A stretch of 63,530 nt of DNA, filler included, from Bigelowiella natans CCMP2755 (lineage: Eukaryota; Protista; Cercozoa): assembly GCA_000320545.1 (NCBI GenBank). It is 6 parts of 6 records of this genome, joined end to end, with 100 filler letters (N's around TTAATTAATTAA, not from the genome) between each part and the next. Parts side by side here need not be neighbours in the genome. Positions count along the whole stretch, not along the records: positions 43,418 to 59,002 come from ADNK01003199.1; 5 more parts are not named here. One strand, written 5' to 3'. A program made the translations under genes and the position numbers. Below are positions 5,514-63,530 of this stretch, in pieces (position 1 is the stretch's first letter; every line of letters starts with the position of its first letter). The notes beneath the pieces are model-generated. The model saw only the letters and a list, made by a program, of their open reading frames with translations. It searched no databases and was not told the origin of the DNA.

Positions 5514-6571
5514 TCGCATCACAGGAACCAAGTCGGTTTGGGTGGTGGAGGACAGTGGGGTTGGAACGCCCTCCTTCTGGTAGCTCTCAGTTTCGAGGTG
5601 AATCGAAGGGGATTTCATCGAAAAGACAACAGAATGAAACGAATTTCTACGGAAAGGGGGACAGCCTCCATGCACATGGAGGCTGAGCTTTTCAGGGGAA
5701 TTGGCTGGTCGCGTGATGCCTCAAAACCGCCTGGTTGCTGCTTTGCGTCCGCATCATGATCCCATTTCAATCGCTTCGATTGGAATTGCTTCATTCATTC
5801 AATTCGCTCGTTTAAAGTTTTCGCCACCGTGTCCTGTTCTGAGTGTCCATTCATTCGAAGCAAGGAGCGCCAGGGCAGACAGGCGGCGGTGCATCGCCCT
5901 AGCCAGGCTAAGCAGGTCCAGCAAGCCAGTGCCAGAGTTCGTGCGCACGTCTAGACGTGCACCAGGTCGAATGCTGTGCGTGTGCACGCCGCTAGCTGCT
6001 AGCTAGGGTTTGGTTGATTTTCTGTTTTTGACTGCTGCGTGCACGCTGGCGTGCGTCCAGACATCCGCTGGTGCTGGCTAGTTGGCGGTCACTACACGCG
6101 CTCGTTCGACAATGCACGTGAGAACACCTTGCTAAGCTTGTACCGCCACAACGCGATGAAGAAGATTGCTCACATGCTCATTGCATTGCTTCATGATTCA
6201 TTCCTGTGATTGCACGTGTTGCTCGTCAGTCACGCGCACGTGCGCATCCGCCTGCACCAACAAGTGCAGGTGCATTGCGCTAGTGCGTGCGGCGGATGAG
6301 CGCACGCTTGCTAGCTTGCATGCATATGCTCACACTGCAACGCACACATGTCTCTGGAATCTCTGATTGGAGCCAAAGCATCATGCGCACATCTAGACAT
6401 GTGCCCACGTGGCACACACATGCTCTCACATGTTCTCACACAACGTGCATTGGTGGTCCAGACTGACCACAGTTGTTCAGCATGTGTCGTTGCAATGTGC
6501 TTGTTCATTCATTTTACATGACGCTACCGGAACGTTCGAATTCCGCACTACGCATGCCATACATGCGTTTA

Positions 6572-31128: not shown

Positions 31129-32302
31129 AACCTAACCCGTACGACGATCGATGCTTACATTCTACGATATTATACGCTGTGAAGTCAGCAGAAAAAAAGA
31201 AGGATGTGAGCACTAATATCCATCATGAAATAGCACTGAAAATTTTCGAGACGTATGAACATGGAAAGAGACATGTGAAGCACTCATTCCCAAGTACACG
31301 TGTAGTTTCCCTTGATGGCGTCGCGCTTGGCATGCTATGTGCAGTAACAATTCAAGATCTTTGTGGTCGGCCTTTTCATTTTCTCGACGTTGAGTGTGTC
31401 TGTGTGTGTGTGTTTGTGTGTGCACTGATTGTGGCGCGCAAGCGCAGCAGATAACAGGTGGGGCGTGCGGTGGCTTAGCTCCATTTTTGTGCTGCCACAT
31501 GCGCGTCATCGTGTTTCCCCACCAAAAAAATGTGAAGCACGGCCGGACCGTTCTAGCGTTGCGATGCTGCTCGTTCATCGCACCACGCTAGCACGTGCGG
31601 AGCATCAGCTAGACGTTCAAGTTGTGAAGTGGGATCAAGACACTGCGCTGTCGTGCATGATCATGTGCAAGTTCAACCATGCACCACAACATGACGACGT
31701 TGCGATGCCATTTTCTGTGTCCAAACGTTCAACGGATGTTTGCTGAACTTTCTAGCTGCCAGTAGTGAAAATTCCGGTTTGCAGCACGTCTCTCTGATTT
31801 CATTGCGATTCAAGATTTGAGATTCGGCGTTCGTTTCGACGTTCCAACAAGTTGTGCGTGCGCAAGCACTTCCTACTCACAAGCTGGACGCACCTCAAGC
31901 GGCTGGGAAAGCGGACAATGAACAATGATGGAAAACTACATTTCCAAGGTGTTGCAAGACACTTGCAATGCACGAAATGCAGTGCCGCGGAGCCGCAAGA
32001 CACTCCAACGCGAAACGGACCGCGGGGACTTGCCAACAGCTAGACAGTGTCAATCAAGCCGAAGGTGAAGTTTTTCGTCAAAAAGGCCGCGACCCCGGCG
32101 GACGAAAAAGCAGAAAGATGAGCCTTTTCTTAGCATAAGTTCAGGTATAAACCTTGTCGCACCCTCAAAATCAGTAGCGTTCTACAACTATGGTGCAATA
32201 TAGTTCGTGCATCATCGCGGACAGAAGATAAGGAAGATGCACCATTGCGATTGGGCGGAGCGCTCCTCGTGAAGAGTTCCCGCTGCCCGTGCCCACTTCA
32301 CA

Positions 32303-37626: not shown

Positions 37627-38617
37627 TACGAAATGTGTAGCCGTGTGTGTGTTTGACTCAATTGCTCAACCGATTTGGAAATTGAGAAATGATGATTCCG
37701 AGTTTACTTAGCGTCAATGCTAATGACAAGTCGGAGGAGAAGTTTCAGTCCAAATGATGAGCGAACGTTAGCGAACAGTCACGTGTGACCCTCCCATTTG
37801 TTTCTGCTTCGTCATTGCATCATCAGTCATCATCCCCGAACATTTTCGTCGACGGAACCTGCTGAAACGAACGCTGCTTTTGTGCTGCGTCAGCCCTCTC
37901 AGTCCGGAAGAAAGACAAAAACGACGATGCGTGTGCATTTTTTTGCTGTTCCATTTTTCGAAGGAGGGAAAACGGGTTTTGAGGCGATCGCGAAGTTCGA
38001 TCGAGATTGCATCCGCACGTGCCGAATTTGGCCACGCGCTGCCGAAACGCAGCCCATTTCACCCGATTTTTCCGTTAAACCATGCAAGAGAAGGCGAAAA
38101 CAGCCAATTGGAAGACCTTGAAGCTTCAATGAACACTTGGTTCTGTGTCGTTCTGTGCTAGCTTGGTTCGCTTCATTGATTGGTTCAAATCGAATGTTGG
38201 GCAACTTGAGAATCGAAGTGTGCCTCACTGCAGTGCTGCGTGCATTTTGGACACTGGCAATGACGCATTTGCAGCGTGCACCTGCGTTGCGTTGTGTTTG
38301 CAACCTGCACGTTGACTGGAAAGTTTCGAGTGACAATGTTGCGCGTAAGGTGTTCACAGGCCGAGGCGCTACGTGCACAAGTAGGCAGGGGGGGGGAAAG
38401 GCACGTTTGCTTCCTTTTGAAGAGTTTTGTTTATTTTTATTAAAGATTATATTTTTGTTAAATCGTGCACTGCGTAATCATTCGCGAAGCTTTCGCGAAT
38501 GCCGCCGCACGTGGGGCAGCACACTTCCGGTGTGCTGCCATGAGTCCCGCCGGAACCCACGTGCCTATACTGTATTAATATCTACGTTATCTATATTCTA
38601 TATCCGCGACAACCCCT

Positions 38618-43417: not shown

Positions 43418-43514
43418 TCGTCGTTTTGCTACGATCTCTTTTTGGCGGTGGTGGTGGAGGGGGAGGAGGAGGAGGAGGTGCAGTAATAACCATAGCAGCA
43501 GCGGATGATCTGTG

Positions 43515-43550
<36 letters not shown>

Positions 43551-43752
43551 GCGAGGAGGAGGAGGATTGTGACGACAGCAGAAGCACCATTAACATGGGT
43601 TATATATTTAAAAAAAAGGATAATTCGTCATCATCATCAAGACGTTTCATAAAGATTCTTACCTGCCCCTATTTTGATAGTCTTATTCAATAAAATTTTG
43701 TTTATATGATAATCATGAATGAAAGCAGCGGTCTATCTATCACATACATGAA

Positions 43753-43788
<36 letters not shown>

Positions 43789-44014
43789 CAATTAGTCTGC
43801 TGGTTACTTATTACTGCTACAATAAATAAATACTAAGTAGCACATAGTATACGATAATAATATGTAATAATGATAATAATTGTAACAACGACGCTACCAA
43901 TCACTAGAATAACTTGTATAACGGACTACTACCTTTGCACTTGTTCTGATGATGATGCTGCATTTTCGAGCATTGCGACCCGAGATGACATAATAGAAGA
44001 TTCTTCCAGAAACA

Positions 44015-44045
<31 letters not shown>

Positions 44046-44053
44046 TTATTTTA

Positions 44054-44091
<38 letters not shown>

Positions 44092-44496
44092 TGTGTATTG
44101 TAGAAAGAGAGAGTGGCATTAATTACCATAATTGATATTATTAGCATAAGCTATGCATTAATTTTTATTGATTATTCATTAAAACTGGGAATTTATTACC
44201 ATAAATATTATTACTCACAGTTCAGGAAGGAATGATAACGACGACAGTATAAAAGCAGCAGCTAATAATATAGAAAGTCCATATTGCAAGCAGCAACTTA
44301 CTACTTTTGGTATTGACAGCCTTATTCTTCTTCTTCTTCTTTAACCCTACTCCTTCTTTTCTAACTCCCTCTAGTAGCTTTTTTTCAATAGGAGGAAGGG
44401 AGGGACAAGGAGCAGCGTGGTGGTGCTGCTGCTGGGATATGCGTCTTGGAGGTGGTGGTGGTGGTGGTCCTCCCCTACCCGATGAGGGTGCTTCGC

Positions 44497-44527
<31 letters not shown>

Positions 44528-45275
44528 TGGTGGAAGATGATTGGACAACGACGATGGCAGAAATTGGGGTGAATATGGTTTGGTACAAGCGATAACTGAC
44601 GATAGCTGCTCATAGCAAGTAGTAGTGAGAACCAAAAGAGGGGTTAATCAGTGAATAAATAAATAAATAATCGATTGATGAGTCATATTAACTGCACAGG
44701 GATTTACAATCAATATCATCACACGTGATCAATACTACAAGGTGATGAGTGTTACCTACATTTGTTAGGAAGTAGTATGTAGTAGTAGTACTAGCAGCAG
44801 CAGTGATATGATGATTATGATGATGATGATGATGATGATTACTATTATGGCATTGTTGGTGATTATTTCTACGTGTAAGCTACGTTGTCGTTTGCGTGGT
44901 TAGTTGTTGTACAAAAGCACACACAGTAATTAAATTAAGTGTTAGTTGGGAAAAGAAGAGGGAGGAAAAACGAATATCAGCTGCATAAAAGGAGTAACTT
45001 CTATGACAAGTCAAAACATCATTTTCGCTTGCACTTATGAGAGCTGTTTATTTCTTTCCTACTTATAACTACTTCTACTACCATTTGGGAAGAGGGCCTT
45101 CTAGGAGGCACTTTTGGTGGTGGTTTTGGTGGAGATGGTACTGCTCCTACTTGTTCTAACCCTGATTATGCATAAGAACAAAGAAAGAATGGAACATAAT
45201 AATAATAATAATGATTATAATAATAAGGCCAACAATGCTGAATCGTCGATGAATTATTAGTAGGAGATCATCTAG

Positions 45276-45313
<38 letters not shown>

Positions 45314-45599
45314 TTCCAAGGGAGGAAGGGGCTAGTAACGATTTCGTTCACTTTTCATTAATTGATTATATAATACTGATTTCATTCTATTTTCATTGAT
45401 TGATTATTTGATACTGATTTGTTCAGACGGGGCATACTAAACTATTAACTCTACCATAAGAAGAAGAAGAAGAAGAAGACGCAGCATGATATCGTTGTTG
45501 GTTGTGGTAGGGTGACAATGATGATGATGATGATGATGATGCGGCATTATTGGGATTTCTTGGAGGTCTCTTATTAGGGGCTGAAGTGTGTGGCCTTAT

Positions 45600-45633
<34 letters not shown>

Positions 45634-46356
45634 ACACGCACATGGTGATAACACATGATTAAACTAAATGTAATCGATGACATCTTAGAAGCATTGCAAT
45701 CAAATATCATAATTAGATTTATAATGATCGTTATTGGGACTCCTAACATTGAAAATCCAACAAATAAATGAAAAGTAGTGAAATGTATGTTTAGTTGGTG
45801 AGAAGTTGGCATCATTTATCTATGTAACAATCAATCCTTGTTTAGTAGTAAGTAAGTAAGTAAGTTGTATTACTGGACAAAAGATGAGTTCCTTCTCGAC
45901 TAAATAGTGATCAGATAACACATAATATACAAAAGAAACATCGATTAGTAGTAAACTTTCATTAATAACATTATACGTGTACAATCAAATATCTTGTACA
46001 CTTACCGTGAAAGTGATCTGTTGGGCTGCTTCCTTTCTCATCTTCTTCTTCTTCTTGATCATCTTTCCTTTTCGTCTGGGGAAAAAACACAAAGTAAATG
46101 ATATTCCTTTGGTTAGGAAGAGACTTTGAGCCAATAATGGCACATGTACTGCTACTACTTATTACTACCACCGAGAAGACCAAAGAAACATCTAATTGTT
46201 ATCCTAATATCCATCATTATTACTACCTTTCAGAGAACATTTCTTTAAGAATAAGATCCTTGCACTTATTCTTGTCAGGAATTCTCACAAATAATGAGTA
46301 CGGTTTTGATGACGACGATGATGACGATGATAACTTTCCATCATTGTTCTTTCTAA

Positions 46357-46390
<34 letters not shown>

Positions 46391-46797
46391 TTGTTGTTGT
46401 TGTCGTTCTCGAGTGGTAGTGCCATGGGTAGTGATTTGGCTTTGTTGATCTTGTTTCTGCTTCTGCTTCTGATGATGATGATGATATGCAGGTAAAGAGG
46501 AGGGTTGGGGTTAGGGTTAGGGTTAGGGTAATAAAAAAACATACAGGTGTTACTCTTGCATGTTGGAATAACAAAAGTGAGGGCGATGAAGATGACGATG
46601 ATGATGATGATGATGTTGTTGTTGTTGTTGATGATTAATTTGGAATAAGCCCTTTCCTATATTTGGTAGTCTAATATAGCTGTAAAAGGTGTGTAAATTG
46701 ATTCATATATAAATAGACATGACAACCTAACCAGTAGATAATAATACGATTGATCAACACACCACCACCAACACCAGCAGTCATAGCAGCAAATACC

Positions 46798-46830
<33 letters not shown>

Positions 46831-46994
46831 TTTGAGGAGGAGGAGGAGGGGTAGGGCAGTTGAAATCCATTTCGCTCCTAAAGAGGAAAAAGAAGAAGAA
46901 GGAGAGGAAGAAGGAGAAGAAGTAGAGTAACAACGACAACAACGATGACAACAACAACAATAGGAACAACAAGTAATACGTAGTAGTAGTACTC

Positions 46995-47028
<34 letters not shown>

Positions 47029-47373
47029 CAATATGAATAGTAGTAGTAATAATAGTAGTGGTACCTCAAGTATTCCTTTTTGAATTAAAGTATCTTCATC
47101 AGGTCGTTTACCTCCAAAAAACTAACAACAATCAGCACTTATGCCTCACAAAATTCAAAATATTCAGCAGTGGTAGTAGCATAAATTTGTATGCTAATCA
47201 CGCTTTCTTCTCTCTTCCTCCTCCCCTCTCTCATCCTCCTCTCTATTCTAATAGTCCACATCTTCTTTCTTTACTTCTTCTTCCTTATTATTGAGTAGTA
47301 CCGTGTTCAATTTAGCATAAGCTTTAGGCATTAAATTCTTGAGACCGTTTAATAAAGAGGAGCCGCCTCTCGC

Positions 47374-47409
<36 letters not shown>

Positions 47410-47534
47410 ATAGTAGCAATAGTAGCGTTTGTATAAGCTTCTATTGAAATATACACAAAGGCGGAGGGTAATTCAGGTAGAATGAGTATAATAATAGCAG
47501 CAGCAGCACAACAAAATGATAGCAAATAGTAGTG

Positions 47535-47568
<34 letters not shown>

Positions 47569-47853
47569 TAGTGGTGTAAAAAGAAACAATTATGACAGTG
47601 AGAGGAGTTGTAGTACTGCCTCCGTTGAATATACTTCTTCTTAACTTCAAACAATTATTTATTACAAGTAGTTGTAGTAGTGGTAGTAGTAGTAGTAGTA
47701 GTAGGCATTTATAGAATGTGTATAGATTATTACGATATATGAACGATCATGATGGAAAGACAACACAACACGAGCGTAAAGAATCGGTGTTTAGTAGTAG
47801 TAATTGTAGAATTAAGGAGATTATAATAGTAGTTGTTGTAGTAGTAGTTGTGT

Positions 47854-47889
<36 letters not shown>

Positions 47890-48901
47890 GTAGTAAATTA
47901 TGAACGAATAAGGAAATGCATAACACAAATGGTATAATAGGCGTTTAGTAAAGCATCATCGAATATTCGTCAAAGAGCAGTAGCAGCAGTCGTTATCCAC
48001 AGCACAACAAGCATTCATTATTGCAAGTTGTATTGGCATTGTGATAGACAACAGACAGCATCATTGTCATCATTATCATCATCATTATCATGTATTTAAG
48101 CAGTATTAGTAGACAAAGTCAGCACCAACGAAGCAACGTCCATTTTACACAGTAAGGAAGGAAGGAAAGAAGTAGTTTCCAAATCACCACATGGTAATGT
48201 CGCAGAAAAATAACAAGGAATCTTGTTAGATTCGTGTCTAATCATTCATAAAGCTGCTACTGCTTATATGTACCATCTTCAAGGATTATGATAAATCGTA
48301 AAAAAGAGGAAAGCGAACATACGTTGTTGATGGCTCTGATGGCTCTGATTCTGGGTGGTGGTGGTGGTGGTGGTGGTAAGGCCTATGGGGTTAATGCAAG
48401 CATCCTTGTCGTCTTCTCGATTCCCCATGCCTATAGTAGTACTACGGTTGATTTGAATAACGGTAGAACCCTTCCTTTCACGCAAATGCGATTTACGTTC
48501 CTACGAGAGAAGGAGGAGGAGGAGGAGGGGGGGGGGAGGGGAAGGGGGAGGCAATAATAAATAGCAGCATCATCATCAATAATAGTAGCAGAGTAATATT
48601 GAGCAGCAGTGGTGTGATAATTGGAAGGAAATAAGTTGATAATCACATATTAAATAGACCTCCTCGAGGATGGTACTCATAGATAAGCTCATAAACTTGC
48701 AGCAGCATTAAAGAGGTAGATAACAGCAATGATAGAGTCTGACTACTATGCTAGGGGGTTGGTAGGTAGGTAAGAGACTCCGATGACAAGCATCAACAAC
48801 AACAACAACTACTACTACTACTTCTTCATTTTCAGTGAATCTGTAATATCGTTTATCAAGGTCCTAAAGGTGGTAGTACTTAAGAGTAAGTAGTAGCTAT
48901 A

Positions 48902-48936
<35 letters not shown>

Positions 48937-48959
48937 GCCGCTACTCCAGCACAAGAAGG

Positions 48960-48998
<39 letters not shown>

Positions 48999-49002
48999 AA
49001 AG

Positions 49003-49047
<45 letters not shown>

Positions 49048-49620
49048 TGATCAATTAGTGACTGTGATAGTAGTAGGAATCAGCACATAATAACAACATA
49101 GAGACATGATAACAGTGATAATAATAATTGCTTTGTGGGAGATTGATTTATTATTACTACTCTCAAGATAGTAGTCGTAGACAAGTGCTATAACTAAGTC
49201 ATTTCTCATCATCACCACCATCATCATCACCTGGAAAGGCTTGTTGATGTATCGTTTGTGCACACATTTGATAAAACCGTAGTTTCTGAGCAGTTGGCCT
49301 TTGAAAGTATCAGTAGTAGTGAAGATTATGGCGATTAAGACGGCATGCTAATACACATAGTAATACCATACAAAAAATGATGAAATATATATTGATGATG
49401 ATTGGTGATGGTTGATAAATGATGAAAGATATATTGATGATGATTGGTGATGGTTGTTGCTCGATATCACCATCATCATCATCATCATCATATAATATAA
49501 TCATCCTATAGAATGCCTTCTTGTGTGTTTAAGAGCACCCACCCACCCACCTATTATTACAGCAGTTTCCCTTGTCAACGCGTATTGATGGAATAACATC
49601 CAGTCGACGAAATCAGATCC

Positions 49621-49655
<35 letters not shown>

Positions 49656-50134
49656 GTAACAACAACATATCGGAAGATGAACATATCAGATCCTAATGAT
49701 AATAAGAATATATCAGAGCAAGTAACATATCATTCACTTTAACGGAGAAGAAGAAGAAGTAGAGGAAGAAGAATCAAGTATGAAGTCTAATCTCATCGCT
49801 ATCATCATCATTATCATAGTTATTATTATTTGCAATTCTATGGAGAATAAAGCAAACAAAGGAAGAAGAAGAGGAAGAAGATAAAGAACAGACGAGGCGG
49901 GTAAATAGCTGCTTGCTCTGGATATTTGTTGATTTATTTAATGGCGGATGAATAGCTGCTTGCATTGGATATTTGTTGTTTTATTTAATGGTGGATGAAT
50001 AGCTGCTTGCATTGGATATTTGTTTTATTTAGTGGTAGCAGTTCATCGTCAAATGCGAAGCATTCATCATTCCCTATTATTATCATCATCATCATCATCA
50101 TCATCCCTATTATTTGCCACAATAATCTGTATGG

Positions 50135-50169
<35 letters not shown>

Positions 50170-50511
50170 CCTCTTCTGTGCATTACCATCATTTATTTAT
50201 CTATCTATGCATATATGTATCGCAGCTATTATTACTACTACTACTACTACTACTATTAGCATCACCGGATACAACGTCCTTGTGAGGCTTTGAAAAGACA
50301 TGTAGCCTCCTTTTCACCTATGATATATAATGTTACAATGCTATGAGTATTATCACCTAATACTACTAAAAATAATAATAGTAGTGATACTATCTACATA
50401 CCTCCTTGAGTCGTATTCCTTGACCCACGTATATGCCTCTCCCCTTCAATCGATTTAATAGTTCTCCAAAATCTTGATAATGAAAGTCAAGAAGAAAGAG
50501 AAAAGGAGTAG

Positions 50512-50552
<41 letters not shown>

Positions 50553-50852
50553 CCAATGGCCAGAAGAGAAGACTAACTAGGGTTCCTCCTCATAATTGAT
50601 AATAATGTGTATAATGGGGTAGATGTTGATCGTTTATTGTAGTGATAAATGAATGAATGGATGAATATATCATATGCTACGATAAACCCTATTATCATCA
50701 TTATTATTACCTAAATCCCTTACTTCATCATCTGCTATGGACCTTCGACGTGACCTACCACTGCTGCTACTATCCTCCTCCTGGTGCTGCTGCTGGTGCT
50801 GGTGAGAGAGCCTTCTTTTACTACTAGTAGTAGTACCAGTTACTCCTGATTT

Positions 50853-50887
<35 letters not shown>

Positions 50888-51628
50888 TCACAAGAACATA
50901 GCATTTTCTAAAGTTGGATTTGGTTATAGTAGTAGTAGTAGTAGCAGCAGTGCAAATAGTCTCCAGTAATTATGACGTATATTTGCTGAACGTATGTACA
51001 TATATACGTATGCATGTATATTATATGTATGTATACATGTATGATCCAATATCTATGTAGTAGTCATCATATGTCAATACTACTACTACTACTACTACTA
51101 CTACTAGTACTACTACTACTGTACCACTCCACAAATATGATACATCATCCCAATTGATTGGTGATAATATAATGAGATGACGATGATTGAATGCTGATCA
51201 ACATACTACTACCTATATCATTATTGTAGATGAATTCCCCCTCCCTCCCCTCCTCCTCCTCTTCGGATTTGAGACCTATATCATCATCATCACCACATAT
51301 GAGAAGCAAGATACATAGTGCTGCAAAGATTATTACTAGACAAGAAGAACTCAAGATATTTAATTTAGACAAGAATGTACGAGTGGTAATACATACATAC
51401 ACAAATAATAGTCAAGGATATAAATTTCTTGTTTATTGTACCAGAAAAAAGAGTAGTCTCATGATGATAAGTAACTAAAAGGGCAGCTACCATTGCATAA
51501 TTAGCTATTATATCCCTCCCTCCCTCCCTCCACATTTTAATATTAATAGCTCATCATTATCATCATCATGATTAAACATGCATGGCACTTACATACCAGG
51601 CATACTACGGCTCTTCATCCTTGTATGG

Positions 51629-51666
<38 letters not shown>

Positions 51667-52887
51667 GTTATTAGTAACAGCACTGTGACCATCGTGGTAC
51701 TTCTTTGGTATGAGACTGTTAAGACTGCTGCCTCTTGCACTTCTATGTTTCATCAATGTAGTAGCAGAAGGTGGTGATATAACAAAATCATCAGTAGAAG
51801 TAGCAGCAGCTGCTTTGGAAGAAGGAGGCGACAACGAGGAGGACAATTCTCCCATAATGCCCGATTTTCTTGTTGTTCTTCTTCTTCTTTCTCTCTCTTG
51901 CAGACATTGAGTAGGCGTTGATGATGAGGAAGAAGAAGGCCTCGATAAGCTTCTTACTCGAATCGGAAGTAGAGGGGGGGGCTGCCGACGTGCAGCTTGC
52001 CGCCGTTTCCCCCCCCCTCCTCCTTGTGGTGAGAAAGAAATGCGTGGAGGCAGACGTGGAGGCAGAGATTTGTCATCATGATTATGATCACGTAGTGGAT
52101 GGTACTGTATTCCTCTTCCTCCTTTTTGTCCTCGTCGTCGATTTTCCTCCTCCTCCTTCATTATCGCTTCCCCCCCCCTTTTGCTACTACTACTACTACT
52201 ACTATAAGTCTTGGTATCGTAGTTTTTATTGCATTCATCTGGTAGAGCCCAACGGAGATAGCTATTTCATATAAACAGCAATTGTATTATAATACAAGCA
52301 ATAATCACACAAGTAGTAGTACCTACAGTCAACACACATGCTTTGTAGTTTATTATCATCTCCGTGATGATTATGGACATAGGATTAAACAATGAATAGT
52401 GACGATAAAAGTGATAATATCGGTAATTATTTATTATTATTTATTACCTGGAGGGTACTAAGCCTACACCATGATCATTCCGTGCCATCCACCATTCTGG
52501 GTCCTATCATCATCATATATAATCGTTAAGAGGGGGGGGGGGGGAGTAATTATATCAATCAACATCACACATCACACAGAAAGAAAGAAAGAATTTTATT
52601 GGCTGCCATCCTCATAATATGTATTAGTATTATTGGTAGTAGTAGTAGTGGTAGTAGTTGTCGTTGTTGTAGTAGTAGTTGGTGCATGTATCAACATGGA
52701 TCTGACATCATTACTAAGTACTTTACTATACTTCATCATATATGGCTGCTGCTACTCCTACTACTACCACAACTGTAATTGCTTAATAATTACTTCTACC
52801 ACTACTTATTACCTCGTTAGTATCGATAATAAGTAATCTATCTTGTTTCCTGATATCATATACGTAGATAAGCAAAATGTATAATAT

Positions 52888-52926
<39 letters not shown>

Positions 52927-53662
52927 TATATTATTCATACATTGCTAGAAATCACATGCAAACTGAAGTAACAAATAAATGAAAGCATGAGTGACTACAA
53001 TACTTGAAAGAGATCTGCGCTGGTGTATCCTCGCCTGATAAGGGACAATTGTATCATCAACCCAAAGAAGAAGGAGGAGGGGGAGGAAGGAGAATAGTGA
53101 TTATGATAATGACAAATAATAGCGAAACAATCTGCCAAGGAAGAAGGAGATTAGGGTTAGTCAGACTCGATCACTACCTCCTCCCCTCCTATGCATGATA
53201 AACAATGGCATCAACATCTTAAATATCATTACTAATTATTATTATTGGTATTGTTAGTATTATTATCATTATTATTATTATTATTATTATCTATACCTTC
53301 TTTGTAATCTTTCAATGCTATGGCCCACCTGACATATTATCAAGCACCGTATTAGTATATATAATTCAGAAAACGACAATGTTTTATTATTATCAATCAT
53401 TGATTCTTCTTCACAATCATGCTGCAGCAGCCTTGCAATGAGTAAATCCGGCACCTTGACCTGGTTTCTCCAGCTTCTTTATTTCCAAGAATATGATGTT
53501 TGGCTCTCCTATTCCCATTTCTCTCTCTCCCTATTTAGTAGGTATGTAGATACTCAAGATTCGTGTATGATCTCACAGCAGCAGAGTATTGATTTGAGTT
53601 GTTGTAACTAGTATTGGCAGTAGTAGCAGCAAAAGTAGCAGTAGTAGTAGTAGTAGTAGTAG

Positions 53663-53703
<41 letters not shown>

Positions 53704-54377
53704 ATCTGTTCTATTTCGCAGTTTGTAAGTTGTTGCCGTCTTAGTCGTCATTACAACATCTCATCGTATGGAAAAGTACTACTACTACTACCACTACTAC
53801 TACTAATCATCCTTGCTGCTTACTAATCGGATGATATGATGTTGTACTACCTTTTCTTCTGTTCTGTTGGTTGTTTTCTGGTCTCCTCACAATTGCCTAA
53901 TTGAGTAGTGTACAAAGATTCATTGACAAAGAAGAAAAACCTAGCGTATTGTTATTGCTGTGTTCTAGTATTAATGACCAGTCTAACAACTAGCATTTTG
54001 TGAGTTACACAGAAGAAACGAGGCTGCTCTTTCTTTGTCAGCAAATATACGACAGTTTTCGCTTAAAAGAAGGAGGAGGAGGAGGAGGAGGAGGAGGAAG
54101 AGGGGGAAGAGGAGGAAGAGGAAGAGGGGGGGGGGAAGAAAGCAACGGACACTACCACCACTACCTTTTCGAGTCTATTGGCCATTTCCAACACAGATAT
54201 ATTTCTTCTATACGATGATGATACTGACAACCAGTATATATTATGTACACATTATCATCCTCATCATACTATCATTCTATCATGTACGAAAGTGATTTCC
54301 ATACCCCCCCCCTTATTGGTCCAACTGTGGCGAGATGATGACGGGCATGACAGCTGTTCCTTCTCCGTTTTTGCCAT
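43418..54377 (-). CDS. Large multi-exon SH3 + DEP + proline-rich + WH2-like protein; 3' truncated
   Basis: Five small phase-matched exons (~53328-52200) splice to WAIALKDYKE-GEDTPAQISFK-KQDRLLIIDTNE-DPEWWMARNDHGVGLVPS-SYLRW (SH3). Exons ~50473-48825 give GIRLKE-VKRRLHVFSKPHKDVVS-GSDFVDWMLFHQYALTRETA...GQLLRNYGFIKCVH..PFQ-DLDKRYYRF (DEP). PPKPPPKVPPRRP lies at ~45100 and poly-Pro followed by LLEGVRKEGVGLKK at ~44335-44378. Confidence 0.75.
49897..50035. repeat. Intronic minisatellite, 3 x ~47 bp
   Basis: Unit ~GCGGATGAATAGCTGCTTGCATTGGATATTTGTTGTTTTATTTAATG repeated three times with few differences. Confidence 0.85.
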
Positions 54378-54842
54378 TTTTATCTGATTTTCCCAAACAA
54401 CATAAATTAAATGAGACTGCAGTGCGAGTACGTAGCAACTTTTAACATTTGCACCAAAATTTGTGATTGTAGTAATGCAGACAAAAAACATCCTACATGT
54501 AACACTAAAAGCACAATCTTCGTGTGACTAAAGACAAAGTACCCTTCTTGGCGGGGGAGGGGGTGGATTTGAGCCCTTGGATTTTCGTAAAAAGGGCGGT
54601 GGCAACGGGGACTTATCCGCTGTTTGAGACAAAAGATTACGATCAGAGTGAGAGTTGATACAAGTGCCAATCTTGCACAAATCGACAGGACAACATATCA
54701 ATGAGAAACCAAACCCATGGTAGCCGTGCAGATGAAGACGTAGAGAACTGCAAGTGCGTTGTAGCAGATCTGATGAAGCACTCCTCCCACCCTCTCCTCC
54801 AGACTACTGTTTGTCCACGGTGGCCATTGCAAGCATCCCACC

Positions 54843-54976
54843 TTCCACAAACAGATCAGTTGTGTTGCAATTGTTGTCAACATTCATGAAGAGGATTTCT
54901 GGATGTTTCCGGCATGCATTTGGTGCTGACATTCCACAAACAGATCGGTTGTGTTGTGATTGTTGTCATCATTCAT
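54843..54976. repeat. Pair of ~45-bp imperfect direct repeats, 89-bp period
   Basis: ttccacaaacagatcagttgtgttgcaattgttgtcaacattcat (54843-54887) versus ttccacaaacagatcggttgtgttgtgattgttgtcatcattcat (54932-54976). Confidence 0.85.
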
Positions 54977-56160
54977 CGGATTTTCGATCGAACCACCCTC
55001 GTAGGATCCTTTAAGTTGAGGGATTGGAGTTGTCGCAGAACAAAAACATCCTGTGATTCTTCTTATGCGGGTTGGTGCACTCAAAACTCATCACTCACAC
55101 TCATTCTTGTTGCACACACAAGCACTTTGCTTCCCTTGCTTGCGTGCTGCTCAAGATGAAAAGATCGAAGCACACAAAGGAGGAATACACAGGGAGAACA
55201 AAGAGATCAAGATTGCACGAAGCCGCACAGGTCATTGGTGAGAGGTGTTAGTGGTGGGGTCTAGACTGGTGAAGCACAGGCCCTCATCGGCTTCCATAAT
55301 GAGCAGATGGCGAGAAAATGAAAACATTCGACTGTTCCTTCGTTTCTGTTCTTATGCTAATGAGTATTAATCATTTGGAGAGCCACTTTGAGATGGATGA
55401 AATCCGTATTTCACCTCTGGATCACAGGAAATGGATGACCATGCAAGAGAGCCAGCTACGCAAGATAAGGACGATGTACAATGAAGAGATAACGCATCAT
55501 GTTCTGAAAAGCTATGGTGTTGCTGTAGTTGATATGATGGTGCTACTGACAAAATGTGCCAGAATTACAAGGATACTACTATTATGATACTATTTCATTG
55601 ATGTAATCCATTTTTATTTCTGGATTAGAATGACTGTAAAGCAGCAGTTGATAGTGGCGAAGGATCAATGGTACAAGATATTCCGTAAGATTTTCAAGGC
55701 TGATTAGGGAAGTGAAGTGTATTTCATGCATTGTTACGGGTTAGTGGCGAATAATAAAATGAAGGGAAGGTTGCAGTGTACTCGACTTTTTTCTCCCCTT
55801 GAAAATGGTGTTAATAGGAGGTGGATGATGCGGAGCAAGGTTGCAAAACTGAATCAAACAACACACCTGGCTCGATTCCGGTCAACTGTTTGAATTATAA
55901 TTTATATAATATAAATATATTGAAATGTATAAAAATGTATAAAAATGTATAAAATTATCCGTACTAGTCTTTGATATCATCATCGATACATCTTGTTTTT
56001 GAATAATCAGGAAACGACCGGAAAAGTGAGTAGTGCAATTTTGTTTATAGAGAAAGACCTACACTACTACTGCGTTCCATGAGAATTCTCTCTGTTTCTG
56101 TCTTTGTTTGAACCACCATTTCTTATCCTCTCAATATTTTCAAACGAATCATAATGGCAG

Positions 56161-58511
56161 GGCTTCGACGAAGAAAAGGACCTTAAACATTGGTCAAAGG
56201 ATGAAGTGAAAGCATGGTTAGGATTCTTACAAAAAAAGGGGGAATTAGAATTTAAAATCGAGAAGGTTGCTTGCCTGGGAGAATATTTTGCTATGATGAC
56301 CAAAGCAGACCTTAAAGAGTTTGCCGATGGGCTAGTGGGCATCCACATCTTCAATGCGAAAGAGGCGCTTCTCAGTAAGCAAAAAGGTAGTGTGCATGCT
56401 AGCTCAACAGACGTCTCACGCGTGTTCTCTGTTGTATACTTTGTCATCGATCGATGTGGAACAATGCCTACAGATGTTACACGTAAACATCCAAGAGAAT
56501 TCATTTTTATGGATGCGTATATAAATGAGTGTGTATGTTAGCTCAACAATCGTCTCACGCTATTTATGCAACACATGCAATATGATTATCATCTCTTAAT
56601 TTTATTTTCTTAATTTTGGTGTTGTATTGCAAGAGTTTTAATGGACTGTGACCTTGAGTACATTGTGTTGCAAGATTTCATAGATGATGGCCTTTATTTT
56701 GTTTTGTAATTATCAGCACCTTCTTCTCCCGAAAGACAACCTGGTAAATATCAATCCCCTTAAAATTCTCCCTTGCGTCCAGTTTATGTATACGTTCACT
56801 ATCAATAGTACTACACAACACTCACACATGCACATATGGTAAATTTAAATTTAATTTTGTTTCAGCAAAACGCCCTTTCGAAATTCATAGACCGACAGAA
56901 ACGAAAGTCGAATTGGGAGAGCTCACACTGGAGGGGGGAAATAATCAGGAGATTGGATGTGTAGAAGAAATGAAGGAGGGAGATTTTTTCTATGTCGACG
57001 GAATAATTCACGCAGGTTTGAAGGAAAAGCAGTTAAGTAAAGAAGCCGATGATAGAATGTTGCTGTATCTACGCGCTGAGGGTTATCAACACTTAAGGAG
57101 GCTCGAAGAAGTGGAAGGTGGAAATGCACTTCTTGTAGATGGACCTAAAGGATCTGGAAAATCTGTAATATCTTGGACTTGGGCAAGGCTAAAAGCAAAA
57201 CAGGGGAAATCTGTGTTGTGGATACACGTGGATAATTTTGCGACTTCTCATGTTACGATTTTGAAGCTTTTCAAGGATGACATTCGACGTGTCTATTTCG
57301 GAGATAAACCAATTAAGTTTCAGCAACTCGTCAAAAGCGATTACGTACTTGATGCTCCCGAGGACATTATCATCTTAGACGGATTCCATAGGAAAGACCA
57401 TGAGGAAATTTTGATACAGTTGTGGGATACTATTGATAATCTCGCACCAACTCGGATCAGCATCGTTGTTTCGTCAATGACGGCTACCTTTTCTGTACAA
57501 GAATTGAAGATGGCCCGTGCTAAGAAATATCGCATAGCATCTTGGACATTTAAGGAGTACAAGGAGGTTATTAAAAACAGGGCATTTTATCGACAAGTGG
57601 AATCAAAATTGGGAGGTCATGGTGATAAGAACGCTAAGTTGTTGCACAAATTTTACTACTCAGGCATTTCTGCCCGTTTTACTTTTCATTTTACGGTTGA
57701 AGAAGTGAAGGAAGAGATTAAAAGGGGTACGATGAGCGTTGGAAATTTATCAGATATAGCAGAAGGAAATGTGACTTCAGCAAATGAAAATGCAGTGAAT
57801 GCACTATACGGAGGAGTGCGATTACCAAGTGGGGAAGTACGAGATGTCTTCGTGAGTCAATATGCTCATAGACTAATTTTTTTAAATGCGCCGAGTCAAA
57901 TGAAACGTGCCTACCGCTTCGCAAAACAATTGGATAATCCGTCGTTTCTTGGTTGGGTAGTGGAAGCCGATTTTCTAGGCATTATTGAAAAACTTGCGGA
58001 AGAAAGTGGGAAATTGGATCTTCTCAATTCGGAAGGGAATACGAAATTCCAACTGAAAATAAAATCTCATCAAAAATTCGATAAAACTGAAGATGTAGAA
58101 TGGAAGGATGGTGCTGTGTGTGTGCCCAATAGATGGAATTATCCGATTTTCGACTTTTTGTACTGTTATACCGTCCAAAGCCACAAAATGAAAGATAAAA
58201 AAGTGGTAATGTTCGGAAACGTGACCGTTCAAAACACGCCAAAATCGTGCAAACTACAACACGTTGCCATAGATTCCAAGAAGTTAGGGGTGAATCGGGT
58301 CCGTTTTGTCGGTGTTAAGCCTTACTCGGAGAAGGGTGAAAACAAAGATATCGCTTGGAAAGATCCTCCAAAACCTGATCCTGAATTGGGAAGCCCAACT
58401 AGTTTAGATGGTTTCTACCATGGACCAACATCGTACAAGTGGAACAAAGGCAACAACTTCTGCGAAACGCTTTTTTTCAAGAGTGATCATCATAATGGCC
58501 GACGATCATGA
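56161..58511 (+). CDS. Crinkler/RHS-type (CR) protein: SAM-like header + P-loop NTPase + PD-(D/E)xK-type REase
   Basis: Header exon 56161-56386 encodes DLKHWSKDEVKAWLGFL...GEYFAMMTKADL...GIHIFN, followed by a micro-exon 56717-56743 and a long exon 56866-58511. The long exon has Walker A GPKGSGKS, Walker B IIILDG, SWTFKEY, KFYYSGISARFTF, NPSFLGWVVEADF and PNRWNYPIFD...FGNVT, a motif order I recognise from oomycete CRN NTPase+REase C-termini. Confidence 0.8.
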
Positions 58512-58849
58512 GCATGAAAGATTCGGTAGCAAATCTGAAATGACCACCGCAAATTTTGGAATCCTTCTAGACACACTCATGTAGCAACAATGATGCAGCA
58601 TGTGACATGCGAATGCAACAATGGCAGCACAATTTGACAGCACGTTGCTCTGTCAACAATCATCTGGTCAAACCACGCATGGCCTTGCAGCAATTTCTTG
58701 ATGCCAACCGAATTGGCATGTGCGCGCAATTCAAAAACCATTGAAAAACAGGCATCACGCTTTTTGCAAATCAAAAGTACTGTTGGGGTTGGGGTTTTCT
58801 CCCAGGCCACAACCAAGATGACGGTCGAAACGAGGGTCAAAGTGAAGGA

Positions 58850-58963
58850 TTAGGGTTTAGGGTTAGGGTTTAGGGTTAGGGGGTTTAGGGTTAGGGTGTT
58901 AGGGTTAGGGTGTTAGGGTTAGGGTGTTAGGGTGTTAGGGTTAGGGTTAGGGTTAGGGTTAGG
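58850..58963 (+). repeat. Telomeric repeat array (TTAGGG with TTTAGGG and TGTTAGGG variants)
   Basis: G-rich strand runs 5'->3' toward the contig end; variant units are proximal and pure TTAGGG distal. Confidence 0.9.
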
Positions 58964-59002
58964 ATTTCCGTGATCTATACCACAACGTGCTAAGACCACG
59001 GA

Positions 59003-59102: not shown

Positions 59103-59174
59103 CCCCCCCCTCCCCCCCCCTTTTGATGTTCCGTTCTATACAAGCGACGATTGATAAATGACTACTATTAACAG

Positions 59175-59538
59175 GCCCGAGTGAAGAACAAGGATGTGGC
59201 GGAGGAACTGAGGAAATTCAAGGAGGACGTGAAAGGAGCCAAAGTAGTCTTGTTTTCGTCGTCACAATGATATTTTACTAGAATCCCACATTACAGCAGC
59301 TGCAACAACTACCGCTTATCTTCTTGACCTCACATGCTTTGTCTTCTGATCGTCCATCACTTGCTGCCAAAGAATGGCGCATAACGCCCCCTAACACAAA
59401 CAATGAAGGTGCACCCGTTCGTCGAGTTTGATGAGAGACAGCGAATGCTCAGTGAAGCCAAAGAAGATCCGAAGCAAGCTAAACTTATCCAGGTAGGATT
59501 TGTTTTCAAAAGAATAATCGACAGCAGTATCTATAACA

Positions 59539-59576
<38 letters not shown>

Positions 59577-59599
59577 TACATACATTATATACATTGTGT

Positions 59600-59632
<33 letters not shown>

Positions 59633-61310
59633 CGCTGTCAGGAATACCTGTACGCGTTGTCGCTGAACAACACGGTTTTCCCCAAAGTCAAGAAGCCTTC
59701 GAGCAAACGGAAGAAGAAAATGGCAGGTGAGAGGCGAAGTATGCGAAAGGATGCAGCCTTTTTAGTCACAATGATGATGATGATGATGAAGATGAAGATG
59801 ATGCTTTTTCTGAATCAGGTGATGAAAAGCAAGAGGACATCAAGCATGATCTTACGGATGCATACCGCAACGTAAGTACTTCGGACGAAAAGAACGCCAT
59901 TTCTGTTTTGTTGTTAAGCGGGATGATGTAGCACAGAACAAGAGCAGCAGCAGCTTGGAACTGCCATCATGGAGAGTAGTGTTTGCTCCATCAATAGCAA
60001 TAGTCGCAGCTGCATCGCTTTGTGCATGATTGCTGGTATTCTGTGGCGGAGGGCATTGCTGCTACGTTTCGATGTGATTGCCGCTTTGGTGCTAGCCTAT
60101 CTATTGATATATCTGCGGGGTCTCCTTTGCCACCAGCACTATCATGACTATCATCATCATCATCATCATCAATCAATAGCACCGTGCTCATCATCGCAAT
60201 ATCAAAGTTCCATTAAAAACCTTATTCTACTGGTACTACTGCTGCGACTACTGGTACTTTCACCACTATAGGTACCGCTTCAGCTGGATTCGTCATCCCC
60301 TGATGAGAAGGCGTTGGTGTACTTTGCGCAGTATATGGGTTACGAGGTGTACCACCGAGCGGAAGGTTGTTGGAGAAAAGAGAGAGAGAGAGAGAGAGAG
60401 AGACCCAGATGGACAAAGGGGGGGGGGGGAGAGTCTTCGCCGCCATCATCGTTGTCGTAGCTCTTGATAATATGCGTCACATATGAAAGGTACGGTGGCA
60501 CTCAAGAGAACCTCTGGAGACCAGCAGAAGAAGTGGTGAGTGAGAGGGGGGAGGAGGAGGAGGATGAGACTACGCAACACGGCGATGATGATGATGATGA
60601 TGAGAATGGTGATCGTGGTGATGATCTTGATATGAAAGGAATGCTTGTTCTTACGAAATATGAAATGTGAATTATGGCAGGTTCGAAGAGTTTGAGGACG
60701 TCTGCCTCATCGATTTCACCTCCAAACGTATCATTATGTCATGCTATTATTGTTGCTGCTGTAGCTGTCAAGATACCGCTGATAGGACGAGGAGAGAGAG
60801 AGAGAGAGAGGGAGAGACCTGTACTGACATTTGAGTACGACGGAATATACGCATTATTGTGGTGATATCATTGATTCTTTCCCCATTCTTCCCTCCCTAT
60901 CAGGAAAACGCATGACTGTGATCGTGTCGCCAAAGTTCGGCCCCGAGAAGGGTCTCCTCAAGATTTATTGCAAAGGCGCAGATTCCTACGTCAAGGCACT
61001 GTGCCGGTATTACTAGGAGTAGTAGCAGTTGGAGTTGGAGTAGAATTGAAAAGGGGGGGGGGGGGGGGGGGGGGGAGTTTAAGACCCAAGAAGAAAATCC
61101 GCGTCCCCAACTAGGCGGGGACCGTGACAAATTTTTTTTCTTTCTCCTTCCATAGCCATTGTTATCATCACTGTGATTACTACAATCCATAACCCCATCG
61201 CCCATCCCAACAGCGGCGCGAAAGTCGGGGCAGCAGAAATCGAGAAGCTGCAGAAGTACAACAAAACCATTTTCGAGAACCTGGAGGAGTTTGGAGGCGA
61301 AAGCTTACGT
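59175..61310 (+). CDS. P4-type ATPase (phospholipid flippase), internal N-domain fragment
   Basis: Exons give EYLYALSLNNTVFP, SSSPDEKALVYFAQYMGY, IDFTSKR-KRMTVIV...IYCKGADS and LEEFGGESLR, the P4-ATPase motif series. Confidence 0.85.
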
Positions 61311-61322
61311 CTGTGACAAAAT

Positions 61323-61353
<31 letters not shown>

Positions 61354-61778
61354 GGGGGGGGGGGGGGGGGGGTTGGGGGAGCTAGCGTGGTATGGAGCAA
61401 GAACAAGAGCCATGTGCATTCTCATTGATGATCGTGCGTTGCTGTTGCACACATATGAGACGAACGATGTGATGAAATCAATGCATTTTTTCAATGATCA
61501 TGGCGGTCATGACACCATGCCTCATAGATCTAGAGATTAATGTGGTGCGCTGTGCAGCTGCAAATTATTTAGCATCTGACACAATCTATTAAGGGAACAA
61601 TTACGGAATCCCAGTGACCCCCCCCCACGTGGATGAGCCCTGTAGCACACAACAGCAGCAAAAGAACAATTGACTTTCTAAATCAAGCACAAAAGTATTC
61701 TAACAGTCCGCAGCAGCTACACGCTCATACGCGCTTATCATAAAATGGTTGTACTTAGTCTTTCCCCCCCCCCAACAA

Positions 61779-61878
61779 NNNNNNNNNNNNNNNNNNNNNN
61801 NNNNNNNNNNNNNNNNNNNNNNTTAATTAATTAANNNNNNNNNNNNNNNNNNNNNNNNNNNNNNNNNNNNNNNNNNNN
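61779..61878. other. Artificial contig spacer
   Basis: N44-TTAATTAATTAA-N44. Confidence 0.97.
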
Positions 61879-62284
61879 CTCTGTTCAGGATCAGGATACA
61901 TTATACGATTGAGATGAAAGAGAGAATGACATACCGCTGATCAGTCTCCTCCCCCATCACACACACGCTTCTCCACCCTCTCCCCACTACCCAACTCCCA
62001 TGAGGTTCGTCTGTACAATACAGTTCCAACCGTACTCATTTTACTCTTTTATAATTATCCTTATTGTTATATTCTTTGATCACCCACACAACCCCCCCCA
62101 GTACCAACCACCCCTTCCCGCACCTGACTACAAGGGTTCTTGCTTCCTTATAAATCCACGCGGGGGTGGGGGAGGGAGGGAGTGGGTGGAGAGTAATCAT
62201 TGCTACTATGACCAATGATGTAACAATAATCAATTCTTCTTCTTCTTCCTCCTCCTTCTTCTAGTCTCTTTCTTTCTCTTACTG

Positions 62285-62317
<33 letters not shown>

Positions 62318-62339
62318 AACTACTTTGTACTCCTCCTTC

Positions 62340-62723
62340 ATGCTCTGCTTCTTCCTCGATGCCACCGTTTCAGGTCGAGCCTGCACGATGTACAGCTTGC
62401 CGGTGTCCCCGTCCTTGGCCCACTCCACGTCAACCGGGAACCCGTAGTGCTGCTCGATGGCGACTGCCATCTTTGATAGCTCCAACACATCGTCGTTGGA
62501 TATGGACCTAACAAGGAGTAGTTTGACGTCATATTGCAGGAGAGACTGGCGTTTCTATGGTAATGGTGTGTGTTGTTGTTTCCTCCCCCTCCTACAAAGA
62601 AAGGATGTGGTTTGAGTAAAAGCCGTGTGTACGACGTCGTTGCTACTGAAGTCATCACCATCTCTCGCGCTCCTCCTCGTTTGTTTCGATGATTTCGCTA
62701 CCGCCACCGGAGGAGTACACCTA

Positions 62724-62757
<34 letters not shown>

Positions 62758-63478
62758 CTCCATTACACATACACCAGTCCACCGTCCGCATCATGCTGTG
62801 CGAGTAGGAAAGATGATCATTCTCCTTCTGATGAGATTCTTCTTCTTCGCATCATGGGTACAATTTGCTCCCACTACCATTTTGACTTTCTTGGACCCCA
62901 GCGTACGTCCAATGATAGCATCCTTCCCCTCTGCGAGTGTCGGCTTAAACGCATAGAACTCATCAGGATTGACCGTCCCTCCCACCACGGTCTCCCCCAG
63001 GCCCCACGCCGAGGTGACAAACACGACATTGCGAAATCCCGTCTCTGTATCTAGAGAAAACATCACGCCAGCCGACCTACGGAGCGTAGTCGTGAATCAT
63101 GCCCAAAGTAAGTCCAAGATGGAGAAGAGGAGGAGGAGGAGGAGGGGGAGAGTGGAGAAGGAAAAGGAAAACCAAGACAAAATGAAGGGAAACTCTTCCA
63201 CCCCCCCCCCCCTCCCCTCCCCCGGTACCCTGCTCTACTATATGCAAGTATTATATCACTAAGATACTCGTCATGGGTTCTCTTATTCTGTTAGAATGAA
63301 GGAGGCAAGAATACCCTGTTTTGCTCCGCACCATCTTCTGGACGGTTGCAGCAAGGGCGACCTTGTTGGGGTCAAAGTCCCTGTCGTGCCTATATGAAAT
63401 AGCCCTGTCCGTGAATAGGGAGGGGAAACCTGCTTCACCTTGACAAACAGGTCATCCTTGCCCCGCACAATCAGATAT
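62340..63478 (-). CDS. ppsA: Phosphoenolpyruvate synthase (pyruvate, water dikinase), internal fragment with introns
   Basis: Exons give [11 protein letters not shown]...[57 protein letters not shown] and [32 protein letters not shown], characteristic of bacterial-type PEP synthase. There is an apparent 1-nt frameshift near 63427. Confidence 0.9.
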
Positions 63479-63530
63479 CTGCGGGAGTATTAACCATGGG
63501 AATTATGATGATGATGATGGGTGGGGGTGG

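Follow-up and report, generated by a model that had tools for sequence, protein, structure and literature searches.

Bigelowiella natans is a marine chlorarachniophyte alga (bioRxiv 10.64898/2026.01.13.699255). In the window, by which we mean the whole stretch of 63,530 nucleotides analyzed here, we found a real, intact and spliced gene of the Crinkler/RHS (CR) type, which encodes a SAM-like head, a P-loop NTPase and a predicted restriction-nuclease (REase) fold, and which lies beside telomere repeats (Table 1). Three of its exons (226, 27 and 1646 nt) have AG/GT ends and are separated by two phase-1 introns; joined, they give 632 open codons, and the product does not differ at any of its 632 residues from the named B. 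natans model Bigna1/91461 (P0006). Four JGI/IMG proteins (P0001, P0009, P0010 and P0011) each cover all three exons in a single frame. Both introns were removed, with GT..AG ends, in one contig (depth ~4) of the marine RNA run X15, so that the header is indeed spliced to the core, as a preliminary description of this DNA had assumed.

That description had proposed an exon-modular gene headed by a SAM-like exon. The three exons, their phase-1 introns and the open join stood, while the place of the SAM exon did not: an RNA joint runs from 55880 through the 15-nt micro-exon to 56161, and hence the SAM exon is not the first. When the two phase-0 upstream exons of the paralogue model P0007 are added, the frame stays open for 687 residues; in the RNA examined these two exons had no splicing support. 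Contigs of X15 run unspliced across 55637-55782 and 55756-55881, an in-frame stop is found at 55815-55817, and within the SAM exon no in-frame ATG occurs before 56293. Any choice of start codon is provisional, and because unspliced RNA precedes the in-frame stop, some transcripts may yield less than the full SAM. We rejected an ATG at 56154 with a one-base error as the start, since it is out of frame and 56161 is a splice acceptor in RNA. We also set aside the exons with which model P0006 starts (from 55156), which lack RNA support here and bypass the exon at 55818. The leader of the 687-residue model is acidic (15 D/E in 55). As the preliminary description had stated, neither an LFLAK header nor a signal peptide is apparent: no match to PF20147 was found, the 687-residue model contains no LFLAK or HVLV motif, and its first 60 residues hold no hydrophobic leader (top 19-residue hydropathy of -0.48, a reading from hydropathy only).

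Table 1. Features of the gene, of the block that holds it and of the adjoining telomere array (positions in the window).
Feature	Position	Strand	Basis and remarks
Multi-copy, microsatellite-free subtelomeric block holding the gene	54590..58845 (left edge approximate)		Depth rise and repeat scan
TpA-depleted upstream flank	54590..55430		TpA 20 observed vs 61.5 expected
Candidate first coding exon, phase 0, holding an ATG	55431..55475	+	Matches first 15 residues of paralogue model P0007; GT donor, open frame; no RNA splicing seen
Candidate leader exon, phase 0	55629..55670	+	In models P0006 and P0007; X15 contig runs unspliced past donor
Acidic leader exon, phase 0	55818..55880	+	Donor in RNA joint; 18/20 residues equal the starts of P0001, P0010, P0011
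15-nt micro-exon, variably included in transcripts or copies	56011..56025	+	RNA joint; in P0001, not in P0007/P0010/P0011
SAM-like header exon, phase-1 end	56161..56386	+	SAM profile, PDB and HHalign matches; spliced in RNA
27-nt linker exon, phase 1 on both sides	56717..56743	+	In P0001, P0007, P0009, P0010, P0011; not in model P0002
Core exon with P-loop NTPase, helical linker, predicted REase fold and stop codon	56866..58511	+	Open frame, homology search, predicted fold
Walker A	57141..57164	+	Core G97, K98, S99 kept in 99-100/100 aligned rows
Walker B	57369..57383	+	D171 kept in 100/100 aligned rows
Predicted REase-fold domain	57939..58508	+	Core E366 and D429 conserved; position 451 is N, 459 is K; folded alone, pLDDT 90
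TpA-depleted telomere-associated flank, partly common to P0007	58512..58845		TpA 4 observed vs 24.7 expected; tblastn E=9e-13
Degenerate TTAGGG array, G-rich strand pointing away from gene	58846..58963	+	118 nt, 16 hexamers

The header had been called SAM-like, and four weak signals now agree on this assignment, none of which passes a curated cut-off. Among them, the match to Pfam SAM_PNT (E=9.5e-4) is under the curated cut-off, the best PDB sequence matches are the SAM domains of ETV6 and SHANK3, all weak, and HHalign gave 87% against the SAM heads of four relatives. SAM-headed relatives include proteins of Arcella intermedia and Amoeba proteus. SAM is reportedly among the CR heads listed by Zhang et al. 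2016. A two-copy prediction of the head, in which an alignment was not used, scored 0.00.

The predicted model of the core is of good quality (pLDDT 88.8), and its N-terminal half resembles the P-loops of AAA+, STAND and helicase proteins (best Z 10.6, rmsd 3.8, 161 aligned). The preliminary description had named a match to a housekeeping ATPase as grounds for giving up its proposal; a profile search of PDB sequences with the core gave weak P-loop matches alone, and thus no housekeeping orthologue emerged. The REase-like character that it had given to the C-terminal half is suggested by the predicted fold, at a low score. When this domain was folded alone, its six best structural matches were all restriction-type nucleases (best Z 5.2, rmsd 6.0, 143 aligned), and 23 of 50 structural-match rows carry nuclease in their title, with scores within the range of common arrangements; Foldseek searches of PDB and viral libraries with the C-terminal model returned nothing at E<=0.001. 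The family pattern E-D-Q-T-H is present in 63 of 101 rows, and E-D-N-T-K in the window gene and P0003 only. The window gene has a lysine where 87 of 96 aligned rows have the histidine, and it keeps E366, D429 and T453. Of 95 rows, 12 share the N at 451, and the nuclease site may therefore be a variant one. E366, D429 and the other pattern residues are presumed to be catalytic from their position and from the PD-(D/E)xK fold. As judged from these residues, the putative nuclease activity may be altered or lost.

A search of 1.84 billion representatives with the core gave 589 relatives at E<=0.001, among whose heads are Crinkler, SAM and others; a Pfam scan of the 148 relatives listed identified two with a Crinkler head and two with a SAM_3 head. 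The Crinkler-headed pair, P0080 and P0133 (head E=1e-15 and 8e-22), share the core with E-values of 3e-19 and 3e-15. Aphanomyces euteiches contributes P0080 and another match with E=3.5e-33. The Atlas neighbors of the window protein are Crinkler and RHS clusters, at 0.90-0.98. The CR kinship claimed for the gene is supported by its Crinkler-headed relatives and its Atlas neighbors. The core has no match to Pfam RHSP or RHS_N at E<=5, and its exon is uninterrupted, with no retroelement insertion after the P-loop. By these sequence criteria, the gene encodes a CR protein that is neither a canonical secreted CRN nor a member of the RHS family. In a quick tree of 78 rows, which excluded hits shorter than 280 residues and most hits after P0100, four named chlorarachniophyte rows, B. 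longifila and Norrisiella sphaerica among them, share a clade of 7 rows (SH-aLRT 95); this indicates an old residence of the family and counts against contamination. Contigs of three DNA runs cover the gene block, and two of them link it to the unique flank. With an identical B. natans model at hand as well, the host is the free-living alga, as had been thought, with no sign of a contaminant. Scans of metagenome and viral contigs found no DNA around the relatives, blanks that are no proof of absence.

This architecture has clear precedents. According to the review of CR proteins (PMC5289972), more than one in four CR C-termini consist of NTPase plus REase and heads vary, and numbered CR-REase families are in use (PMC6131194). 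The proteins reviewed likewise have a variable head, a P-loop NTPase and a REase fold, and the B. natans core is sequence kin to Crinkler-headed oomycete proteins; in contrast to them, the B. natans gene has a SAM-like head and not the ubiquitin-like LFLAK one, no secretion signal was seen, the family is small and the putative nuclease site is altered (PMC5289972). Subtelomeric mosaic RHS genes have been described in trypanosomes (PMC7563717), and in that account they too are a family of many telomere-linked genes that has an ATP-binding motif and includes pseudogenes and mosaics. In the Atlas, RHS is a neighbor at 0.93. The B. natans gene differs from them in having introns and no RHSP/RHS_N match or retroelement after the P-loop. 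The direction of variation is also reversed: T. brucei RHS proteins have a conserved N-terminus and a variable C-terminus, unlike the B. natans family (PMC7563717). CR proteins in free-living eukaryotes have already been published (PMC5289972, PMC12957317), and since amoebal relatives also bear SAM heads, the gene is less surprising than it would otherwise be. In the literature searched, which covered few subscription papers and not the primary CR survey, no listed paper dealt with CR genes of chlorarachniophytes; judged from its listing, the only paper joining both terms is concerned with Phytophthora viruses.

The gene sits in a block set apart from the DNA to its left. In runs X1 and X3 the unique contig stops at 54587 and depth increases beyond it; simple repeats of at least 15 nt number 40 in 43418-54200 vs none in 54201-58845. 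Transcription was said to run toward a TTAGGG array some 340 bp away, and we measured 338 nt from the stop codon to the first TTAGGG. Read mapping extends to 58840, short of the array itself. The array has the orientation that a chromosome end would show and is likely a true one, which is unproven because 39 non-telomeric bases and an artificial spacer of 44 N, 12 nt and 44 N come after it. These 39 bases (58964-59002) bear 6-base inverted ends and have no match to plasmid records. Short internal TTAGGG arrays do occur, as a run of ~5 units lies at 46501-46529 in an intron-like region. The upstream flank contains an imperfect direct repeat of ~45 nt, 90 nt apart (54840-54990). The same spacer stands at five places in the window (26133, 38618, 43318, 59003 and 61779), and the contigs joined in this way need not be adjacent in the genome. 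The two short contigs past the array (59103-63530) hold P-type ATPase fragments (weak, E=0.0015) and fragments of a PPDK_N-family gene, and an intronless gene with an F-box and Kelch repeats lies on the minus strand at 3705-5510.

The paralogues of the gene are known from proteins and from read depth. Two further named B. natans models belong here, P0007, which differs from the window gene at 17 of 542 core residues, and P0002. The tail of P0007 matches the 3′ flank of the window gene and continues with residues that telomere repeats would encode; P0002 ends at core residue 338, followed by telomere-repeat-like residues. These tails are suggestive, and only that, of paralogues located beside telomere repeats. 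The cores of P0001, P0008, P0010 and P0011 are identical to one another, and in the head P0001, P0010 and P0011 depart from the window gene at 16, 1 and 10 of 75 residues; identical cores under unlike heads could be assembly chimeras. In B. longifila, P0028 has a head identical to that of P0009 at 21 of 30 residues, a core with 29% identity and ~120 extra residues between them, and judged on these identities it is one case of a head and a core with separate histories. Relative to the unique flank, two DNA runs gave a median depth of 8.3 and 9.1 for the 5′ part and of 2.2 and 1.9 for the 3′ half; the mapping tool cautions against reading summed contig depth as copy number, and a third DNA run has no baseline. 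These depths hint that the 5′ part has many copies, of which about two are complete. The multi-copy, telomere-linked family and the variable headers anticipated in the preliminary description were thus supported, with named paralogues (P0007 and P0002), a depth of 8-9x in 5′ and ~2x in 3′, heads more divergent than cores, and a similar head on a distant core in P0028.

Comparison of P0002 with the window core, at the protein level, gave a very skewed set of differences: 35 of 37 are of the TpA -> TpG/CpA type (21 A>G-type and 14 T>C-type, on both strands), a class that accounts for 78 of 646 possible non-synonymous transitions (12%). P0002 retains none of the 18 fully informative TpA sites, and its tyrosines go from 12 to none. 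At tyrosine columns common to the outgroup P0003, P0002 has His or Cys in 8 of 8, which fixes the direction of change. The aligned core of P0002 has no CTAG sites. Reads of run X1 are skewed too (A>G 92 and T>C 100 vs C>T 23 and G>A 22), but only 10 of the 22 A>G/T>C sites among the 40 of 361 rows listed are in TpA context (background 18%).

TpA depletion is visible around the window gene, whose flanks contain 24 TpA vs 86 expected, compared to 99 vs 113 in six introns (p=3e-8, with flank borders chosen after inspecting the profile). Only 12 of 1219 equal-length windows are as TpA-poor as the 3′ flank. In 58512-58845 and 54751-55250 together, 11 TpA sites remain, 7 of them within TAG or CTA, which are small numbers. 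As the introns keep their TpA, codon selection is no explanation for them, and the transcribed unit therefore seems to have been spared by a TpA mutator or lately overwritten by an unmutated copy. Among the relatives, P0057, a fragment from Norrisiella sphaerica, lacks Tyr throughout its 145 residues, with His or Cys in place of 3 of 3 conserved Tyr, and P0101 has no Tyr in 116 residues and His at 3 of 4, where the background of His plus Cys at such columns is 5%. These residues, small in number, hint that the TpA mutator has been active in a second genus, Norrisiella. Elsewhere in the window, the TpA-poorest stretch (37650-38350, rho 0.05-0.2) holds the relic of an open frame with abundant Cys and His and no Pfam match, and is likely a mutator-purged repeat; further TpA-poor patches lie at 5450-5950 and 31600-32100 (rho 0.14-0.21).

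TpA -> TpG/CpA hypermutation is known to hit integrated viruses of B. natans (bioRxiv 10.64898/2026.01.13.699255), and our case has in common with it the species, the spectrum and a silent target. The targets differ: in that preprint they are NCLDV and virophage insertions, while here they are a copy of an intron-containing nuclear family and telomere flanks. Regions of more than twice the mean depth were left out of that study, and the text of the preprint mentions neither telomeres nor Crinkler nor Norrisiella, though its supplementary lists may hold P0002. The architecture of the gene, then, is not new, and the fresher lead is a mutator that appears to erase a sibling while sparing one copy.

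What we very probably see is a CR family with telomere-linked birth and death. As to function, we give roughly even chances to the view that the host keeps few complete copies as an intracellular, ATP-switched conflict effector. In such an effector the variable SAM head would bind a partner or another copy, the AAA+/STAND-like NTPase would then change state and the C-terminal domain would next bind or cut nucleic acid. The family likely spreads passively, via recombination between chromosome ends, since introns are retained and no mobility enzyme is encoded, and a host TpA -> TpG/CpA mutator likely inactivates spare or truncated copies while the transcribed unit escapes. Attack by the mutator would suit a selfish element equally well. 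Under that explanation, which we find unlikely yet worth serious weighing, the 4.3-kb block would be a telomere-linked element whose NTPase-nuclease promotes the breaks or recombination that copy it, and the TpA mutator would suppress it as it does integrated viruses. The block does have a sharp boundary in composition and depth, partial copies are many by depth, and one copy, P0002, is wholly purged and truncated; CR cores are tied to transposons in section 11 of the review (PMC5289972). There is also a selfish CRN-like precedent in free-living animals, AACRNL (PMC12957317), which like the B. natans family is CRN-related, amplified in a non-pathogen and devoid of a canonical head, but whose core is an ADP-ribosyltransferase with reported self-promotion and not an NTPase with a REase fold. 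Against a selfish element stand the mere two or so complete copies estimated from depth, the retained spliceosomal introns, the lack, in the three flanking frames scanned, of any match to a transposase or a reverse transcriptase and, among the listed repeats, of a long terminal repeat pair, and the old residence across chlorarachniophyte genera with motifs intact.

The altered nuclease site bears on another explanation, that of a domesticated nuclear ATPase, nuclease-weak or nuclease-dead, acting on chromatin or transcription. The replaced H and the change from Q to N would fit this, as would the transcripts recorded without known infection (the MMETSP-labelled P0005), and such a role has been proposed for trypanosome RHS proteins, described as nuclear and ~30% subtelomeric (PMC7563717). 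We nevertheless consider it improbable, given that E366, D429 and T453 are kept, that N451 maybe marks a variant site, and that head variation and copy turnover are unlike a housekeeping gene. Kinship with oomycete Crinklers might finally suggest an effector secreted against prey or competitors, or the gene of a contaminating parasite; the absence of LFLAK or HVLV, the hydropathy peak of -0.48, chlorarachniophytes as closest named relatives, and the three DNA runs covering the block, two of which tie it to unique flank, make either of these very improbable.

Returning to the family with telomere-linked birth and death, a further proposal is that the mutator governs the copy number of a toxin-like family at chromosome ends, purging silent or truncated siblings and flanks and sparing the transcribed copy with its introns, in Norrisiella as well. 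We put this forward tentatively and rather doubt it. For the role of CR proteins in non-pathogens, the gene offers an expressed, low-copy example in a cultured alga. Intact and purged copies within one genome provide a handle on the choice of targets by the mutator, in multi-copy DNA of the kind that the published experiment excluded. If the proposal is true, the mutator would be targeted by silence or chromatin state and not by foreign origin, its role would not be antiviral alone, and the locus would be a ready test object for mutator targeting.
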